This document shows positions 91 through 7,550 of a stretch of DNA of 64,000 nucleotides, piece by piece. The DNA comes from an uncultured Bacilli bacterium (GTDB taxonomy: Bacteria > Bacillota_I > Bacilli_A > RFN20 > CAG-449), in the NCBI GenBank assembly GCA_944332075.1, contig CALVJL010000001.1:138775-202774 (forward strand). The letters run 5' to 3'. A model generated the notes under the pieces. It did not search any database. It saw only the letters and a program-made list of their open reading frames with translations, and had not been told where the DNA came from. Each line of letters begins with the position of its first letter. The stretch's first letter is position 1. A program made the translations under genes and the position numbers.

Positions 91-265
91 ATTTTTCACT
101 CGCCTTTCTACCATAAGCACTCTATAACAAGAGTAAATTACAATTTTACTTTTATCAATTATTATAAATCAGACCTGATTTACTAATATAATTCATATCC
201 TCTAAAATCAGCTATCCAATCGTAGTCATTAGAAAGTGTAGCACCGAATCATAACTAAAAAAACT

Positions 266-292
266 GACACCCCTACTAGCAAAATGAAACCC
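266..292 (+). repeat. Repeat unit GACACCCCTACTAGCAAAATGAAACCC (copy A)
   Basis: Direct repeat of 3168-3194 with 26 of 27 positions identical. It lies on the other side of the MerR/ABC operon. Confidence 0.75.
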
Positions 293-435
293 TTACTAGA
301 TAAACGAAACCCCTTAATAAATGCTTGATACCACTTCTTTGCTTACGTTTGAAGATGTTTGTTGGTTGAGTATAAATTCAACTTAAAGAAATTGACGCAA
401 TATAAGGCAAACGTAAGGGTTTTGTGAGGCTATTA

Positions 436-494: not shown

Positions 495-1211
495 TTATTT
501 TGATTTTTGTTTTGCTAAAAGTACTGAACACAATATAACTTCTAAAGCCAATATAAGTATTAAATACCAAACATTTTCAAAACAAAAACCATTATCTAAC
601 ATTAATTGATAACCCCAAGACGCAGGAAAAATACGACCTATGATTAAGAGAAAATTAGGTAATAAATCAATAGGAAACATTATCCCAGAAAGCATGATTG
701 ATGGTAAAAAAACAAGTTGTGATACCATTGTCAGTTTAGCCCTATTTTTTACAACTAAACCTAATACACCGCCAATACCAAGCGCCACAATAATATACAT
801 AGTAAGACCAAGAAAAAAATATGGTAATTGTGCTGGTAAGCTTGCTTTAAATATCAACGGAGCAAGAATTATGATAACCGATGAACTAATCATCAAATGC
901 ACAAATGTAGAAAGGAATATAGTAACAAAACCTAAATATATAGGAACTCCATTTGCTTTATACACTTTTTGTATATCGCTTCCATAAGTTTCGGCTAATG
1001 TCGGCGGTAATCCAATAATAGCTCCCATTGAAATATTCATCACAATCATTGATTGTATAAGCGTGCTTTTCATTTCAGGCATGACAGATATAAAAATACC
1101 GCCAATAAGTAAAAAGAAAATAAGAGGCACAATATAGCAAGTTATTAATAAAGTTTTACTACGTATATCTAACTTCAGCTGCAATAATAATCCATACCAA
1201 AAACCTCTCAC
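495..1211 (-). CDS. ABC-2 type transporter permease
   Basis: 238 aa with six predicted TM helices. Its start overlaps the upstream ABC ATPase stop by 4 nt (ATGA). Typical ABC-2 exporter membrane subunit. Confidence 0.7.
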   Translation of the reverse strand: MRGFWYGLLLQLKLDIRSKTLLITCYIVPLIFFLLIGGIFISVMPEMKSTLIQSMIVMNISMGAIIGLPPTLAETYGSDIQKVYKANGVPIYLGFVTIFLSTFVHLMISSSVIIILAPLIFKASLPAQLPYFFLGLTMYIIVALGIGGVLGLVVKNRAKLTMVSQLVFLPSIMLSGIMFPIDLLPNFLLIIGRIFPASWGYQLMLDNGFCFENVWYLILILALEVILCSVLLAKQKSK

Positions 1212-2023
1212 TTTATTTCCCTCCTCGCTATTTCAACAAAGTGTTCTTCAAGCGATCCACGATCGACTTTAATATCTAAAACTTTGACTTTTTTATGTTT
1301 AAACTCACCTAATAAAGTGATTAAAGTATCTTCTATATTATTTGTCTCTATGGTTTGGTTTTCCAACTCTGTTTTTATATGAATGAAGTACTTTCTTCCA
1401 ACATTCTCAGTCAATTCAGAAACTGTCCCACAAAAAATAATATTACCCTTATTTAAAATAGCAATACGATCACATAATGCTTCAACTTCTGCCATATCAT
1501 GACTTGCTAAAACTATTGTTTTTCCTTCTGATTTAAGACATTTAATCTGTTCGTGAAGTGAAAGCTTTCCTTCAACATCAAGTCCAGCTGTAGGCTCATC
1601 AAGAAAAATAATATCTGGATTACCTACAAGGGCAAGCGCTAGATTTAATCGTCTTTTTTGACCGGTGGATAGTTCAAAATATTGTTTCTTTTCTATTTCT
1701 TTAATTCCTAGTTTTTTTAACATCTCATAATCTATTTTTTCTTTATTCCATTTAGCAAAAAGTTTTATTGCTTCCATTGGTTTGATATGTGCAGGTAACG
1801 AGGATGATTGCAATTGGATTCCAATTTTGCCATTTACAGTTATTGTCCCACTATCATATTTTCTTAATCCTTCAATAATCTCTAAAGTTGTAGTTTTCCC
1901 TGCGCCATTAATACCAAGTAAAGCAAAAATCTCACCTTTTTTAACTTTAAATTCTATTCCTTTAAGAACTTCACAAGTCCCATAATTCTTTCTTAATTCA
2001 TTAACATTTATAGCATCTATCAT
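1208..2023 (-). CDS. ABC transporter ATP-binding protein
   Basis: Walker A GINGAGKTT, ABC signature LSTGQKRRL and Walker B IIFLDEPTAGLD are present. Confidence 0.9.
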   Translation of the reverse strand: MIDAINVNELRKNYGTCEVLKGIEFKVKKGEIFALLGINGAGKTTTLEIIEGLRKYDSGTITVNGKIGIQLQSSSLPAHIKPMEAIKLFAKWNKEKIDYEMLKKLGIKEIEKKQYFELSTGQKRRLNLALALVGNPDIIFLDEPTAGLDVEGKLSLHEQIKCLKSEGKTIVLASHDMAEVEALCDRIAILNKGNIIFCGTVSELTENVGRKYFIHIKTELENQTIETNNIEDTLITLLGEFKHKKVKVLDIKVDRGSLEEHFVEIARREIK

Positions 2024-2031
2024 GATTTCAC

Positions 2032-2820
2032 CTACTCAAACGGATTTATTCCAATCCTTTTAAAATAAATTTCTAAGGCAGGACCTACATAATCGTTAAC
2101 AATCTTTTGTCTTTCTTCCCAGGAATTTGTAGCCATACCTATATTTCCAACTTCCATTAATTTTGGAAGCATACTCATATCTCCGTTGGTAAACTCCATG
2201 ATTAACCCCCAATATTCTCCTATTATCTTTTGACTTTCTTCGCTTCCTGGAGAAACTTTTTCTTCATGAAGTCTTACAATTTCATCACTTAAATGATTAA
2301 ATCTAGCCATAAAATCTAAACCACTTTCTTTATCAAATTTGTTACGTATATGGTCAAGTGTATTATCGTCAAAACGTTTGATGAGTGGATAAAATTCATT
2401 TTTCATTTGTAAATTAACAATAATATCTGCATATTTCTTGAAATTGACAGTATTCATTTGCAATACTTCTTCTTTTAATTGCTCGATTGCTTTTAAAGAA
2501 TCTTGCAGATTTTTGATTTTATTACGAATATCGTTAGCCTGTTCACTAAGAGCATTAGCCACATCTTTTGGTGTTTCTAATTTAATCAGTCTTTCTTTTA
2601 TATCATCTAAAGTAAAACCTAAAGATTTTAAAGATAAAACTTGATGAAGCATAATTAGATCTTTGCTCGAATAAAGTCTTCGACCACCTTCACTATGTGT
2701 AGATGGCGAAAGCAAACCCTCTTTATCATAATATTGTAGAGTGCGAACAGTAACTCCCATTTTCTTTGCAACTTCTCCAATTGTCATAAAGTTATTAGGA
2801 ATAGCTCTATATTTACTCAT
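2032..2820 (-). CDS. MerR family transcriptional regulator (N-terminal HTH plus C-terminal effector domain, TipAL/BmrR-like)
   Basis: N-terminus MTIGEVAKKMGVTVRTLQYYDKEGLL is a MerR HTH, followed by a coiled linker and a ~150 aa C-terminal domain. A strong RBS (AGGAGG) precedes it. It is co-oriented with the ABC efflux pair. Confidence 0.85.
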   Translation of the reverse strand: MSKYRAIPNNFMTIGEVAKKMGVTVRTLQYYDKEGLLSPSTHSEGGRRLYSSKDLIMLHQVLSLKSLGFTLDDIKERLIKLETPKDVANALSEQANDIRNKIKNLQDSLKAIEQLKEEVLQMNTVNFKKYADIIVNLQMKNEFYPLIKRFDDNTLDHIRNKFDKESGLDFMARFNHLSDEIVRLHEEKVSPGSEESQKIIGEYWGLIMEFTNGDMSMLPKLMEVGNIGMATNSWEERQKIVNDYVGPALEIYFKRIGINPFE

Positions 2821-2869: not shown

Positions 2870-3081
2870 GCCTTATTTTAATTAAATTTTTAAATCTTAT
2901 TTACTTTTATTGTACAATGAGATTTTAATGCTATTTAAAAAGAAAATTCATATATAGTCATTCGCATTAAAGTGTTAATCACTAAAAATTTTATTATTCA
3001 ATAGAGATATTATTTTATTTACATTATATAGAGTTGTGAAATCACAAGTATGAAAATCTTATGAATAAAAAAGTGCTATTT

Positions 3082-3123
3082 CCCCATTTCTTTGCCAATT
3101 AGGGTATGATAGAAATGGGGGGG
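3082..3123. repeat. 42-bp GC-rich hairpin element, copy 1 (CCCCATTTC-n21-GAAATGGGG)
   Basis: A perfect 9-bp stem. The 21-nt loop is the exact reverse complement of the loop in copy 2 at 5072-5112 apart from one base. It is followed by GAAGTTTCATATAAAATG, which is also conserved beside copy 2. Confidence 0.8.
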
Positions 3124-3167
3124 AAGTTTCATATAAAATGTCTTTGTGCCGTCGTTTGATACAAAAC

Positions 3168-3194
3168 GACACCCCTACTAGCAAAACGAAACCC
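3168..3194 (+). repeat. Repeat unit GACACCCCTACTAGCAAAACGAAACCC (copy B of the CTACTAGCAAAAYG family)
   Basis: A near-identical 27-mer occurs at 266-292. The core CTACTAGCAAAACG recurs at 4931-4944. CTAGTAG half-sites occur at 4864-4870 and 4883-4889. Confidence 0.75.
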
Positions 3195-3427
3195 TAAAGG
3201 AGTGCGTATTTTATTGGTATTTTTTATTATTTACTAGTCCATCTATAGTGACCATAAACCTCATTGACTGCTTCAATGTAGCAAATGAATGATGGATGAT
3301 TATTATCGTTCCTTTTTAAATATAAATTCTTTTTGTCGAGATAACATTGTCTGACTTCTTCCCATAAATTATTGGCTTTAAGCGTCACAAATTTTTCAGA
3401 TACTTTGCTTGAATTAGGTACTTGGTT

Positions 3428-3883
3428 TCAAAAATACCTATCAGAATTTGTATAACCAGTTTTTTGATGAATTAATCGATACCAGTTTCCTTTATCATCT
3501 TTTTTAACAATGCAAAGATCCATACTAAATTTGATGTCAGGATTATCTTTAAAATATACGCACTTTGATGATAATGTCGAGGTGGAATCCTCAACATCAT
3601 GCAACCCGTTTTTTCTCATTATCTTGTTTAAAGCTTTACGCGTAGTTTCCTTAAGAAATCTACAGTCAGTTATATCATCACACTTTTGAATCAAAAGATT
3701 ATAATCAAAATCAATGTCACCATCTTCATTTTGAGTGACCATATTTCTACTACCACTACCAACTAATATAAATTGGGCGCTTATACCTTCTTCTAACAAG
3801 GATCCAACAAGTTTGTTTAAATCTTCAACACAAGAATTTTGAGCTCTTTTCAAAAACTCTTTATCCTCTACAAAATGATACAT
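3428..3883 (-). CDS. Minimal nucleotidyltransferase-fold protein (Pol-beta superfamily; SMODS/MNT-like; Lnu-like alternative)
   Basis: 151 aa. LVGSGSRNMVTQNEDGDIDFD matches the NTase signature hG[GS]-x(9-13)-DhD. A further acidic residue lies in a predicted strand (FSMDLCIV). It has its own strong RBS (AAGGAGG) and a TGA stop. No second domain is present. Confidence 0.6.
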   Translation of the reverse strand: MYHFVEDKEFLKRAQNSCVEDLNKLVGSLLEEGISAQFILVGSGSRNMVTQNEDGDIDFDYNLLIQKCDDITDCRFLKETTRKALNKIMRKNGLHDVEDSTSTLSSKCVYFKDNPDIKFSMDLCIVKKDDKGNWYRLIHQKTGYTNSDRYF

Positions 3884-4200
3884 ACTTAAAAACCTCCTTA
3901 ATAAATATTATCCCCATGCCTACCACTTGAAGTATGTATCCGTTCTTCAAATCAAATATTTATATCTTTCAAAACAATATTTGTCGATAGTTATCGAGCG
4001 TTTTCACTCGTTTTCATCAAAAAAAGACTAGGTCCTTAATTATATTTTGAAATGCAAAAAAACGCACGAAATGACACTAAATCACTTCAATGCGTTTATA
4101 TTTGTTATCAATGTAATTATTTAAACCGAAATCACTATTATTATTTCTTATTGGAAGTATACTAAATTTTAATTTAAGAAAGATAACTATAATTTCAATT

Positions 4201-4671
4201 CTATCTATAAAGTACAACAATTTTAGGATCTGACAAATCTTGTTCTCTAACAAAGCATTCTGCGTAATCTCCAACTTGATATGAAGTAAAATATTTAGAG
4301 AATATTCTAGATACAAATCTAATTTTAACTTTTTTATTTAAATTATCTGTTTCGATTTTTCCATACATTACACTACCTAAGAATCTTTCTAGGATTTTAA
4401 CATGAATCAATTTTCCTTTTGAATTAATAAATGGCAAAAATCTATATAGATATATAATCAAAGAAGCAATAAAGCAAATAGCAAACAATACATCTATCAA
4501 TATTAGAACACTAAATATTTCATTAACTGCTTCTTGATTAGCATTTGTGGAATCAAAAGACTTTAAATAAAATATCAAGCATAAAAAGCAAATAAATGTT
4601 ATTAGTTGAATTGCTAAGGAAATAATCATCCAAGAAAAACCGTACATTCTTTTAATATTGAATTTTTCCAT
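4201..4671 (-). CDS. Small two-TM membrane protein (SLATT-like topology), unknown function
   Basis: 156 aa. Two predicted TM helices (residues ~12-36 and ~52-76) are followed by an ~80 aa soluble C-terminal region. It lies immediately upstream of the NTase gene on the same strand, with a hairpin and T-run terminator between them. Confidence 0.5.
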   Translation of the reverse strand: MEKFNIKRMYGFSWMIISLAIQLITFICFLCLIFYLKSFDSTNANQEAVNEIFSVLILIDVLFAICFIASLIIYLYRFLPFINSKGKLIHVKILERFLGSVMYGKIETDNLNKKVKIRFVSRIFSKYFTSYQVGDYAECFVREQDLSDPKIVVLYR

Positions 4672-4926
4672 ATTTAAATTCCATATTTATAATTTATGTT
4701 TCCAACAACCATACAACCACGGTTATTCGTGTTGTTAACATAAAATGTTTTTTCATTAATAAAACCTCCTATGTCTTGGTTAGTTGCGACTAACTAAAGT
4801 ATACTACTTCCTTTTTATATGTCAATAATTTTAATCAAGCAAAAACATAGGGGTATCATTTCTCTAGTAGGGTATCGTTTTTCTAGTAGAACTAATTTTT
4901 AAAAATTCCTCAGTTCGAACGAGTTT

Positions 4927-5064
4927 TCATCTACTAGCAAAACGCAAAAAATATTTCAATGCATCCGCGCGAAAACCATATTTTCTTTCGATTTCATAAA
5001 TTGGTACGTTCTCTTCGATGTGAAGCTTCACAAAGCGAAGCTTTTCTTTTAATGTGTACTTCAT
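4927..5064 (-). pseudogene. IS3-family transposase OrfA N-terminal remnant (HTH only, about 45 aa)
   Basis: MKYTLKEKLRFVKLHIEENVPIYEIERKYGF resembles the IS3/IS150 OrfA N-terminal HTH (consensus ...YT.EFK..AVKLY.E.G.SI.EIA...GI). It terminates after 45 codons. The longer ORF in the six-frame track (to 5121) merely reads through the hairpin. Confidence 0.5.
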
Positions 5065-5071
5065 GTAAAAA

Positions 5072-5112
5072 CCCCCATTTCTATCATACCCTAATGGGCA
5101 AAGAAATGGGGG
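5072..5112. repeat. 42-bp GC-rich hairpin element, copy 2 (inverted relative to copy 1)
   Basis: CCCCCATTTC-n21-GAAATGGGGG, with a loop that is the reverse complement of the copy-1 loop. It sits 15 nt from the tRNA-Trp 3' end. Confidence 0.8.
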
Positions 5113-5126
5113 AAGTTTCAATAAAA

Positions 5127-5200
5127 TGGCAGGGGTAGCAGGAATCGAACCCGCAATAACGGTTTTGGAGACCGTTGCTATACCATTTAACTATACCCCT
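5127..5200 (-). tRNA. trnW: tRNA-Trp (anticodon CCA)
   Basis: Minus-strand sequence AGGGGTA...ACGGTCTCCAAAACCGT...GGTTCGATTCC...TACCCCT-G-CCA. The anticodon loop CTCCAAA gives anticodon CCA. The 3' CCA is encoded. Confidence 0.85.
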
Positions 5201-5693: not shown

Positions 5694-7550
5694 TTAAGAT
5701 AAATATTCTTCCTCTAACTTAGCTAAATCTGCTTTTAATGCATCTAGCTTTTTCTCTAATGCTTGCGATTTATGATAATCCATATAATTTTCTTCTTTGA
5801 ATAAATCTTCTTCGACTTTCTTTATTTCCGCTTCAGTTTTATTGATTAATTCTTCAAGTTTTAAAGGAGAACGTTTGGATTTTGGTTTATCTGAAACAAC
5901 TTTTGCTTTGATAACTGGTTTCTTCTCATCTTCGAGCTCATCGCTAAGTGAGAAAAGCGATGCTTCTTTTTCTTTGAAATCGAGGTAATTTCCTTCCATA
6001 AAATAAGGTTTATGATGATCGATATACAAAATATGCGTAGCTAACTCATCGACGAAATAACGGTCATGGCTAACAAAAATAATTGATCCTTGATAATCTT
6101 TTAAAGCTAATGTTAAAGCTTGCCGAGTAACCATATCAAGATGGTTAGTCGGTTCATCTAGTAAGAGAACATCATAATTTTCTAAGATGATTTTAGCTAA
6201 AACGACACGCATCTTTTCTCCGCCGGATAAAAATCCAATCTTTTTATTAGCGTCTTCATAATCAAAGTTAAATTTTCCTAAATGATTATATACGCCTTTT
6301 TCGCCAAGAGACGGAAAATCTTTTAACAATTCTTCAGCAACTGTTAAATCCGGATTAAGATCGACTTGATGCTGTTTAATATAACCAATATTGATTTGTC
6401 TTAAATATCTTATCTCGCCTTGTAAAATATGTTTTAATGAGACAATCGCTTCGAGCAAAGTAGTTTTTCCGCAGCCATTAGAGCCCATAATAGCAATTTT
6501 ATTTTGACCAAATAAGGAAAAATTAATATGCTCAATTAACGGTTGATCATAGCCTATGGTAACATCATCAACCTTTATGATTTCTTTGTTAGCTAACGAT
6601 TCACCATGAAAATTTAGTTTTAGTTTATTTTTATTTTCATAAGGCTTATCAAGAATCTTCATGTGCTCAAGTTTCTTCTCGCGGTCTTTTGCCCGAGACA
6701 CAAAACGCGGCTTTGGTTTATAAAATTCAATAAAACGTTTTAATTTTGCAATTTCGCGTTGCTGATTATTATAGGCGTTAAGCATATTTTGATAACGGAT
6801 TTTCTTTTCTTCAACATAAAAAGAATAGTTACCTTTATATACTTCAGCAGCATGGTTATCAATTTCAACAATCTTATTTGCTAATGCATCGATAAAATAA
6901 CGGTCATGGCTAACAAAAAGTAACGCGCCGCGATAAGATTTAAGATATGTTTCAAGCCATTCAATCGTCGCGATATCTAAGTGATTAGTCGGCTCATCAA
7001 GAATCAATAAATCAGGTTTGATTAATAATAACTTTACAAACGCCGCTTTTGTTCTTTCTCCTCCAGAAAATGAAGATAAAACTCTCGTTAAATCTTCTTT
7101 ATGAAATCCGAATTTGGAAAGCATCATATTGATTTGATAATGATAATCATATCCACCTAAAAGTGAAAATTCTGTTTGTTTCTTTCCATATTCATCAATT
7201 AAGGTTTGATTATTTGGGTCATTAGATAATTTTTGCTCAAGTTCTGAGAGTTCTTTTTCTTTAATCATTAAAGGAGTAAAAACTGATTCAATTTCTTGAT
7301 ATAGAGTATGATTAACATCTTTAATGACCTCTTGCGACAAATAGCCAAACTTAGCTCCTTTTGCAAAAATTATTTCCCCAGAAGTTATTTCTTCTTCTCC
7401 GATAATCATCTTTAACAAAGTAGTTTTTCCATTGCCGTTTGGTCCAATTAAAGCAACGCGGTCATTATCATTAATTAAAAAGCTTACTTTATCGAATAAT
7501 AAAGTGTCGCCGAATTCTTTTTTTACGTTTTGAAGAGTAAGTATTTGCAT
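5694..7550 (-). CDS. ABC-F family ATPase (two ABC cassettes plus C-terminal coiled coil; Uup/YdiF-like translation factor)
   Basis: 618 aa. Two Walker A motifs (GPNGNGKTT and GSNGCGKTT), two ABC signatures (LSGGERTKAAF and LSGGEKMRVVL) and no TM domain. A K/E-rich coiled-coil tail is present. Confidence 0.9.
   Translation of the reverse strand: MQILTLQNVKKEFGDTLLFDKVSFLINDNDRVALIGPNGNGKTTLLKMIIGEEEITSGEIIFAKGAKFGYLSQEVIKDVNHTLYQEIESVFTPLMIKEKELSELEQKLSNDPNNQTLIDEYGKKQTEFSLLGGYDYHYQINMMLSKFGFHKEDLTRVLSSFSGGERTKAAFVKLLLIKPDLLILDEPTNHLDIATIEWLETYLKSYRGALLFVSHDRYFIDALANKIVEIDNHAAEVYKGNYSFYVEEKKIRYQNMLNAYNNQQREIAKLKRFIEFYKPKPRFVSRAKDREKKLEHMKILDKPYENKNKLKLNFHGESLANKEIIKVDDVTIGYDQPLIEHINFSLFGQNKIAIMGSNGCGKTTLLEAIVSLKHILQGEIRYLRQINIGYIKQHQVDLNPDLTVAEELLKDFPSLGEKGVYNHLGKFNFDYEDANKKIGFLSGGEKMRVVLAKIILENYDVLLLDEPTNHLDMVTRQALTLALKDYQGSIIFVSHDRYFVDELATHILYIDHHKPYFMEGNYLDFKEKEASLFSLSDELEDEKKPVIKAKVVSDKPKSKRSPLKLEELINKTEAEIKKVEEDLFKEENYMDYHKSQALEKKLDALKADLAKLEEEYLS

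Follow-up and report, generated by a model that had tools for sequence, protein, structure and literature searches.

The closest described relatives of the locus analysed here are conflict systems that contain a small nucleotidyltransferase (NTase). CD-NTases, the enzymes of CBASS (antiphage systems that signal through cyclic oligonucleotides) that are classed as SMODS by Burroughs et al., have a Pol-beta core with the signature GS...DxD...D, an N-terminal helix, a sheet and a C-terminal helical bundle. In Hailong, a small gene for a membrane protein (the channel HalA) precedes a small NTase gene (HalB), and the 2TM-beta protein of Panoptes, where it accompanies mCpol, combines two transmembrane (TM) helices with a beta domain, as does Cap15. 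These traits recur in an islet beside a tRNA-Trp gene of an uncultured Bacilli bacterium (GenBank assembly GCA_944332075.1, contig CALVJL010000001.1, positions 138,775 to 202,774 of the forward strand; this whole stretch of 64,000 nt is called the window), where a gene for a protein with two TM helices (the 2TM protein) is followed by an NTase gene. The initial annotation saw in these genes a candidate two-gene conflict system of the SMODS/SLATT-like or minimal nucleotidyltransferase (MNT) type. We consider it probable that the islet is a decayed mosaic of two unrelated modules, not a two-gene system, and that the NTase represents a family which travels as solo cargo with a leader of its own. 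What stands of the initial annotation is an accessory, horizontally moving, SMODS-like NTase; the proposed system of NTase and 2TM protein does not.

The islet would be lodged just downstream of tRNA-Trp and bounded by a duplication of about 60 nt of the tRNA-proximal terminator. Its first module would be the tail of a lineage-specific operon for a helix-turn-helix (HTH) regulator, a secreted protein and a membrane protein with two TM helices and an oligonucleotide/oligosaccharide-binding (OB) domain, of which the membrane gene alone would be intact today, with its own promoter and terminator. The second module would be a cassette of about 0.9 kb that elsewhere forms the extreme end of serine-recombinase mobile elements, with a near-consensus sigma-70 promoter and a structured leader ahead of the gene for a 218-aa NTase and a 57-nt terminal element after it.

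The main evidence comes from the neighbourhoods of the two genes. When genes within three positions of the NTase were clustered over 102 loci, the 2TM gene, detected with a hidden Markov model (HMM) of its family, was found beside the NTase in two of them (L066 and L084; L-numbers denote fetched loci and P-numbers proteins that are database relatives). A survey of 48 metagenomic loci with the 2TM gene gave an NTase within 6 kb in two, once with an AP2 gene in between (L145) and once in partial form (L129). The pair is not co-conserved across related loci. In the closest relatives (L124-L128 and L158), which are 97-99% identical at the nucleotide level over the 2TM gene, the NTase cassette is absent, and homology to the window ends at position 4056 or 4039, past the 2TM terminator and beside the start of the cassette at 4032. 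L124/L126, L125, L132 and the window each continue differently after this terminator. In locus L066 an identity of 94% extends from the 2TM gene through the spacer into the NTase gene, of which it covers the first 30 nt; from there on L066 has an NTase allele with 68% DNA identity in the aligned part and 52% protein identity. The recurrence of adjacency is best explained, in our view, by a variable hot spot on the downstream side of the 2TM terminator.

A functional conflict system of the two proteins, whether CBASS- or SMODS-SLATT-like or Hailong/Panoptes-like, would agree with the co-orientation of the genes with the TM gene ahead of the NTase as in Hailong, with the CD-NTase-like fold of the NTase, with two TM helices and a small beta domain that recall Cap15 and 2TM-beta, and with the adjacency in L066, L084, L145 and partly L129. 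Against it stand the low frequencies of adjacency given above, the presence of another usual neighbour of the 2TM gene, namely an upstream secreted-protein gene, and the strong terminator and separate promoters that lie between the two genes. The terminator had been noticed in the initial annotation and is borne out by folding (-18.6 kcal/mol, z -4.4). No effector HMM from PADLOC or Pfam matches, and the beta domain is OB-like, with Cap15 missing among the 50 listed structural matches. Because the 2TM gene persists without a working NTase, both here, where the NTase gene carries a stop codon, and in its nearest relatives, a restraint of the Hailong/Panoptes type, with the NTase holding a toxic effector in check, is contradicted. 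A CBASS-type logic, with a signal that activates a membrane effector, lies outside this argument, yet it finds no support in synteny, HMMs or fold, and a joint system of either kind appears extremely improbable.

In its model (predicted local distance difference test score, pLDDT, of 83), the 2TM protein has helices at residues 12-37 and 46-81, which agrees with the initial annotation; what had been taken for an 80-aa tail is a beta domain (residues 85-154). This domain has five strands and gave a weak Foldseek match to OB folds of the IF1/S1 type (E 8e-3). All statements on Foldseek comparisons with the PDB rest on the 50 matches listed per query, and no Cap15 structure is among those of the 2TM model. 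No SLATT or CBASS-effector model of Pfam or PADLOC matches the protein, and a profile of its family gave spurious matches only against PDB sequences. The family is narrow, with 21 clusters found only in gut Acholeplasmatales-like genomes, sometimes as two paralogues per contig. In most of the 48 loci a gene whose product carries a signal peptide and is 147 or about 720 aa long lies directly upstream at a distance of 2-3 nt, and it is usually preceded by an HTH_3 regulator. Neither the short nor the long form of the secreted protein has a Pfam domain; the short form seems to be the long one with an internal part deleted. The window retains the last codons of such a gene in front of the 2TM gene (Table 1), and the 2TM protein would be an orphan, left from a pair in which it served the now lost secreted protein as an immunity- or anchor-type partner.

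Both small co-oriented open reading frames (ORFs) of the initial annotation are present, at 3428-3883 (151 aa) and 4201-4671 (156 aa), each on the minus strand. The first of these is not a minimal NTase of 151 aa: it stops at a TGA codon (3428-3430), and the same frame runs for 66 more codons to position 3227. Aligned homologues (n=57) measure about 213-243 aa, mostly 216-225, and all 57 have an invariant Trp at position 152, where the window has TGA. The nearest relative, P0001 (218 aa, 95% identical), reads ...DRYFWNQVP... at this place. Since the 66 codons past the TGA show only two differences from P0001, the nonsense change is recent, or possibly the stop is a sequencing error or leaky. 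The window (GC content 32%) uses the standard genetic code; code 4, with TGA read as Trp, was considered and rejected, as TGA closes five of 43 long ORFs and table 4 leaves the longest ORFs no longer. The Pol-beta motif is real, with GSGS at residues 42-45 and DIDFD at 56-60, although ten residues separate the two and not 13 as first given. The catalytic residues G42, S43, D58, D60 and D122 are invariant in the 57 sequences and all present in the window copy. According to the model, the cut product would retain the catalytic sheet and lose the C-terminal helices 161-216, and the window NTase is most likely inactive.

The structure of the family was modelled with AlphaFold2 on P0001 (pLDDT 90.5, pTM 0.87). 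All 50 listed Foldseek matches of this model in the PDB are CD-NTases (CdnB, CdnE, CdnG, CdnD, CdnC, DncV) or cGAS, with E-values from 7e-6 to 8e-3 and TM-scores (query) of 0.38-0.56; the top match is DwCdnB (E 7e-6, TM-score 0.54 over about 210 columns). The SMODS-like character proposed initially is thus found at the level of the fold. Sequence models respond weakly. In Pfam, the window protein and P0001 have no match and one of the 57 members matches DncV-like (E 0.012); CBASS_cyclase_b of NCBIfam finds one member (E 0.014), the Cyclase models of PADLOC at most six of the 57 (best E 2e-5) and NTP_transf_2 three of the 57 (best E 0.0023). Searches of PHROGs and of PDB sequences with the family profile gave no real NTase match, with spurious matches only in the PDB. 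The database search found 69 relatives, and the single annotated member of the family bears the name 'hypothetical protein'. A profile search returned 971 representative clusters at 50% identity (E <= 1e-3), and relatives were confirmed at 216 places in a species-genome collection, those listed being mostly metagenome-assembled genomes of gut Bacillota, including Acholeplasmatales. Others occur in 23 viral contigs of IMG/VR and, as two matches, in GenBank phages; a search of 72,556 plasmids found none. Some members are extended at the C-terminus, one as a recognisable fusion with PIN7 (P0181, 351 aa, E 5.6e-16); several others carry extensions of 80-150 aa without a known domain. The family and its leader appear to be undescribed in Pfam, NCBIfam, PADLOC, PHROGs, Rfam, the PDB and the literature searched.

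The initial annotation had also allowed for a lincosamide nucleotidyltransferase of the Lnu type or a member of the MNT family, and neither of these, nor an aminoglycoside nucleotidyltransferase (ANT), finds support from HMMs or fold: no ANT, Lnu, MNT, MenT or poly(A) polymerase is among the 50 listed structural matches. An antibiotic-modifying Lnu or ANT enzyme, carried as resistance cargo, would have a similar size and layout, with an NTase core and a short helical C-terminal domain. It would also be at home as solo cargo with a strong promoter of its own on phages and integrative and conjugative elements (ICEs) of gut Firmicutes, and DIDFD resembles the motif of Lnu(A), as had been pointed out in the initial annotation. 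We hold this identity to be very unlikely in view of the exclusive structural likeness to CD-NTases and cGAS among the listed matches, the absence of such a match in NCBIfam (resistance models included), Pfam and PDB sequences, and the lack of family members in the plasmids searched; moreover, Lnu and ANT resistance genes are not known to have a dedicated G-rich structured leader.

The genes around the NTase identify it as cargo. None of the neighbour clusters goes beyond 10 of the 102 loci, which leaves the NTase without a conserved protein partner. Recurrent contexts are positions directly after paired large serine recombinases, genes of type IV secretion systems (T4SS; PrgI, VirD4-like, VirB4-like), TerS/TerL with a ParB-methylase, type I and type III restriction-modification systems, and AP2-domain genes. 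In L070, L071, L079, L081, L087 and L104 the NTase lies within conjugative T4SS operons, between a VirB6-like membrane gene and a PrgI or VirB4-like gene. It follows TerL in the phage contigs L105-L107, L110 and L111, and it stands between TerS and the ParB-methyltransferase in L113 and L118-L120. The window copy belongs to a cassette found at 90-96% identity in L001-L005, L021 and L022; these seven loci share its sharp ends at 4032 and 3139. In L001-L005 and L022 the cassette begins a few bases past the stop codon of a serine recombinase, and L021 starts inside it. The view of the initial annotation that the NTase is accessory and horizontally transferred is borne out by this mobile cassette and by the occurrence of the family in phages, ICE-type elements and serine-recombinase loci.

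Two further observations concern the start of the NTase gene. Locus L132 keeps the promoter, the leader and the first 20 nt or so of the gene (6746-6839), with the gene body swapped for unrelated sequence, and L066 and L129 carry a divergent allele from about 30 nt into the gene. The start of the NTase gene may be a recombination breakpoint.

Upstream of the NTase gene of almost every family member lies a leader whose layout is kept among proteins that share only 27-60% identity. A near-consensus promoter is followed by a hairpin of (A/U)(C/U)GAUUUAG, a loop of 5-14 nt and CUAAAU, then by a tail of UGG-N1-2-GG-N3-4-GGG and, 1-16 nt (mostly 6-8) past this G-rich tail, by the Shine-Dalgarno sequence and the start codon. 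In an alignment of 46 distinct leaders 95.3% of the cells show pairing at the six hairpin positions, against 83.5% in shuffles (none of 500 reached 95.3%) and at most 44% with a slid partner column. There are 31 compensatory cells, and as G-U pairs (about 16) far outnumber A-C pairs (1-2), it is the sense strand that folds, i.e. an RNA. The loop is not conserved; the three GG doublets are invariant and the GAUUU start is conserved.

A covariance model of the leader (R1) has a single significant match in the window (Table 1). In 1.8 Mb of fetched loci it found 106 matches, many of them in loci outside the training set, and 105 lie directly upstream of an NTase gene on the same strand; the sole exception is L132, where the leader is kept and the gene body lost. 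An exact-pattern scan of 2.9 million viral contigs gave three matches, each before a family member, one of which is 27% identical. Within the sequences searched, the covarying leader is thus found only upstream of this NTase family. In 44 of 50 leaders exactly 5 nt separate the end of the -10 hexamer from the hairpin G, and in 39 of 50 the -35 box matches in at least five of six positions; given this fixed -10 spacing, the transcript is predicted to start at the base of the hairpin. A cmscan search of Rfam 15 (E <= 10) gave no match for the window copy or for a canonical copy from L030, and sequestration of the start codon by the leader showed no excess (20 of 65 against 125 of 325 shuffles). 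Leaders of the window type can form a 14-nt stem (93% complementary) between 3877-3890 and 3927-3940 on the minus strand, which joins part of the hairpin to the start-codon region.

The leader could be a generic stabilising 5' hairpin with an extended ribosome-binding region and no specific ligand or partner; 5' hairpins protect mRNAs of Firmicutes, and the fold of the window copy is weak (-6.1 kcal/mol, z -0.7), with a loop of the unconserved kind. We doubt this, while allowing it a share of the probability, because the three invariant GG doublets, the fixed spacing and GAUUU across proteins of 27-60% identity exceed the needs of stabilisation and the motif was found with the NTase family alone. 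An NTase acting as a toxin or RNA-tailing enzyme (MenT/AbiEii-like or MNT-like), with the leader RNA as antitoxin, decoy or substrate, would account for a leader and a gene that stay strictly linked one to one even at 27% protein identity, for a hairpin predicted at the exact 5' end of the RNA and for the lack of a conserved protein partner; toxin genes, besides, commonly acquire inactivating mutations. We think it unlikely: neither HMMs nor the fold link the enzyme to MenT/AbiEii (DUF1814) or MNT, its neighbours include no HEPN gene, and the leader is a single copy within the mRNA, unlike the repeated RNA gene of type III toxin-antitoxin systems.

A third proposal, which we put forward tentatively and would not call likely, is that NTase and leader form an undescribed one-protein, one-RNA module that mobile elements use in conflicts between phage and host or element and host without a protein effector. 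The leader would in that case be a new riboswitch class, or else an RNA ligand, primer or substrate of the enzyme; as a riboswitch, it could possibly use the three GG doublets and the GG of the Shine-Dalgarno sequence as a two-layer G-quadruplex.

The islet itself is a repeat-bounded mosaic beside a tRNA gene whose pieces recur in unrelated contexts. The adjacency to tRNA-Trp (5127-5200, minus strand) was confirmed with ARAGORN. The inverted hairpin repeat reported initially is real as well and measures 43 nt (3079-3121 and 5072-5114) at 95% complementarity. The segment is not AT-poorer than its surroundings, as had been stated (GC content 0.24-0.31 inside against 0.30-0.38 outside). The repeat has two copies in 64 kb, compared with none expected by chance, and both are hairpins themselves. 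On the minus strand the right copy folds (-25.7 kcal/mol, z -3.9) directly ahead of U5; hairpin and U5 are likely the intrinsic terminator of tRNA-Trp. Besides the inverted match, the two copies share a direct flank of 17-18 nt, GAAGTTTCA(T)ATAAAATG. In the right copy this flank reaches as far as the tRNA-Trp CCA end; in the left copy it runs to where the NTase cassette ends. Owing to this shared flank, the pair is better described as a duplication of about 60 nt with a flipped loop (3079-3140 and 5065-5127, copy starts 1,993 nt apart). The repeat hairpin is absent from every other fetched locus.

The hairpin sequence together with the first 25 codons of a 45-codon ORF remnant next to it recurs in another contig (that of P0259, 79 aa), where they are joined to the C-terminus of an apparent DNA methyltransferase, and a contig of the same species (L172) breaks inside the hairpin. 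This suggests that the hairpin is a recombination or assembly breakpoint. The 45-codon ORF had been called a transposase remnant; it has no HMM match, and its homologues are only short fragments. Presumably it resembles the HTH N-terminus of an OrfA of the IS3 type, again without HMM support.

A second repeated sequence is the 20-nt motif GGGTRTCGTTTTKCTAGTAG, which has five occurrences in the window against 0.02 expected, at the sites 273-312, 3175-3194 and 4851-4889. One small array closes the NTase cassette, a second is found in inverted orientation upstream of the 2TM gene and a third downstream of a MerR-ABC transporter operon. The block at 4848-4947 recurs in L021, L066, L126-128 and L132. 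The motif may be an element-end or recombinase site. The operon just named, with a MerR/TipAS-type regulator and an ABC ATPase and permease (495-2820, minus strand), is situated directly beyond the left hairpin; it is flanked by 57-nt element copies at 260-321 and 3139-3195 and may itself be a cassette.

Sister species (L137 and L139) have an islet with HTH, secreted-protein and 2TM genes at the same YqeY/tRNA-Trp position. It is bounded by direct repeats of 129 nt that are 1,989-1,990 nt apart, and both repeats hold a pseudo-tRNA 3' fragment (GGTTCAATTCCTACCG...). In close relatives the 2TM block is found just downstream of other tRNA genes, for Val, Pro and Thr, which suggests that it is a small tRNA-associated mobile module.

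Table 1. Coordinates of the features discussed, in the window unless a fetched locus is named
Feature	Sequence	Positions	Strand	Basis and remarks
218-codon compact CD-NTase-like gene	window	3227..3883	-	TGA at codon 152; ORF list, frame extension, alignment, model
5' leader: hairpin (UUUGAAG...CUUCAAG), then UGG-UA-GG-CAU-GGGG	window	3909..3956	-	covariance model R1, 30.3 bits, E 4.6e-6
Canonical leader copy	L030	7943-7985
NTase promoter TCGACA-17-TATAAA	window	3959..3987	-	-10 box ends 5 nt before leader hairpin
NTase cassette (promoter, leader, gene, terminal element), ~0.9 kb	window	3139..4032	-	locus comparison
Terminal element, ~57 nt	window	3139..3195	-	20-nt motif copy at 3175-3194 and related segment GGGGTGTCGTTTTGTATCAAACGAC... 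ending ...GCACAAAGACA
Second copy of ~57-nt terminal element	window	260..321		locus comparison
Intact 156-aa membrane protein, two TM helices and C-terminal OB-like beta domain	window	4201..4671	-	ORF list, model, Foldseek
2TM intrinsic terminator (hairpin and U7)	window	4057..4098	-	homology to nearest relatives ends here
Promoter-like site TTGACA-16-TATACT upstream of 2TM gene	window	4798..4825	-	11/12 positions
Remnant of secreted-protein gene, last ~30 codons	window	4674..4766	-	ends ...NNTNNRGCMVVGNINYKYGI (also given as ...NNRGCMVVGNINYKYGI); 2 nt from 2TM start
Upstream secreted-protein genes	L135; L145	5555-5998; 3833-5998
tRNA-Trp (anticodon CCA)	window	5127..5200	-	ARAGORN; Rfam tRNA 65.4 bits; CCA 3' end abuts right repeat
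Right repeat copy, att-like duplicated sequence	window	5065..5126	-	flank CATTTTATTGAAAC, hairpin 5072-5114, U5; repeat search, folding
Left repeat copy	window	3079..3140	.	hairpin 3079-3121, loop flipped relative to right copy, with direct flank GAAGTTTCATATAAAATG; abuts cassette end; repeat search
45-codon ORF remnant (MKYTLKEKLRFVKLHIEENVPIYEI...)	window	4930..5064	-	ORF list; no HMM support
Cluster of GGGTRTCGTTTTKCTAGTAG	window	4848..4947	.	4851-4870(+), 4870-4889(+), partial reverse copy (CTACTAGCAAAACGCAA) 4931-4947; repeat search
129-nt direct repeats	L137; L139	4824-4952, 6813-6941; 4827-4955, 6817-6945		first repeat starts at tRNA-Trp CCA end
tRNA genes beside 2TM block	L126/L128; L132; L066	5528-5604; 5528-5604; 5774-5849

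Taken together, the features are compatible with integration at the tRNA followed by decay and by capture of the NTase cassette. The NTase of this family would be transcribed constitutively from the resident element, and its leader, a small element that binds a ligand or a protein, would control how the mRNA is translated or how long it lasts. The enzyme may make or transfer a nucleotide in a conflict role, as defence or counter-defence, without a co-encoded effector.

Several points weigh against this account of the locus. The order 2TM gene, then NTase occurs in five contexts (the window, L066, L084, L145 and, in part, L129) with divergent alleles, which exceeds a single accident and could hint at a link between the two. 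The TGA in the window may stem from a sequencing error, or ribosomes may read through it in part, so that the enzyme might still be made. The likeness of fold is moderate, with TM-scores of about 0.5 at 11-17% identity, and would not prove a cyclic nucleotide product. Most of the loci searched with R1 had been chosen for their NTase, so that the small viral scan alone is unbiased. The islet contains no integrase or recombinase ORF (3140-5065), exact look-ups of the flanking YqeY and MerR proteins did not recover an empty tRNA-Trp site or strain variants (one led to a contig that stops within the hairpin, and the other protein had no record), and the putative integration history is reconstructed from repeats only. 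Finally, we infer the conflict role, the regulation by the leader and the 'orphan immunity' function of the 2TM protein.

The locus itself is a case of ordinary decay and should not be catalogued as a defence system. Its interest lies in the family to which it leads, a large, apparently undescribed group of about 1,000 clusters at 50% identity with a cGAS/CD-NTase fold of some 220 aa and the annotation 'hypothetical', which phages and conjugative elements of the animal gut carry singly at their ends and hot spots. Should the enzyme indeed produce a nucleotide signal, this would be a case of a cyclase that has no effector linked to it, for which host effectors, rival phages or its own RNA come into question as target. 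The leader is a candidate for a compact riboswitch or an RNA partner.

Compared with tRNA-adjacent integrative islets, the locus has the same repeats at or near the tRNA CCA end around about 2 kb of accessory DNA; it differs in having no integrase, in a duplicated unit that consists of the tRNA terminator hairpin with a flipped loop, and in being a mosaic of remnants. The leader resembles small riboswitches and leaders such as preQ1-I: it measures about 40-45 nt, has a single covarying hairpin whose conserved 3' tail directly precedes the Shine-Dalgarno sequence, and is placed as translational elements are. It is set apart from them by a G-rich tail (UGG-N2-GG-N3-GGG), an unconserved loop and no evident pseudoknot between loop and tail, by the lack of an Rfam match and by being bound to a single gene family. 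MNT-HEPN pairs differ in that the NTase described here has 218 aa with a helical C-terminal lobe and no recurring partner such as a cognate HEPN gene would be. Unlike in Hailong and Panoptes, the pairing with a membrane protein is not conserved, and the NTase is dispensable while the 2TM gene persists; the beta domain of the 2TM protein is OB-like and its sequence matches no PDB chain. In addition, mCpol of Panoptes is a Cas10-palm enzyme, in contrast to the Pol-beta NTase of this locus. The CD-NTases remain the nearest relatives by fold, although the matched structures have about 270-390 residues as compared with about 218 here. As the NTase has neither Pfam SMODS/CD-NTase membership nor adjacent effector or Cap genes, we file it as a compact CD-NTase variant and not as a family member, one that is carried singly by mobile elements and equipped with its own structured leader.

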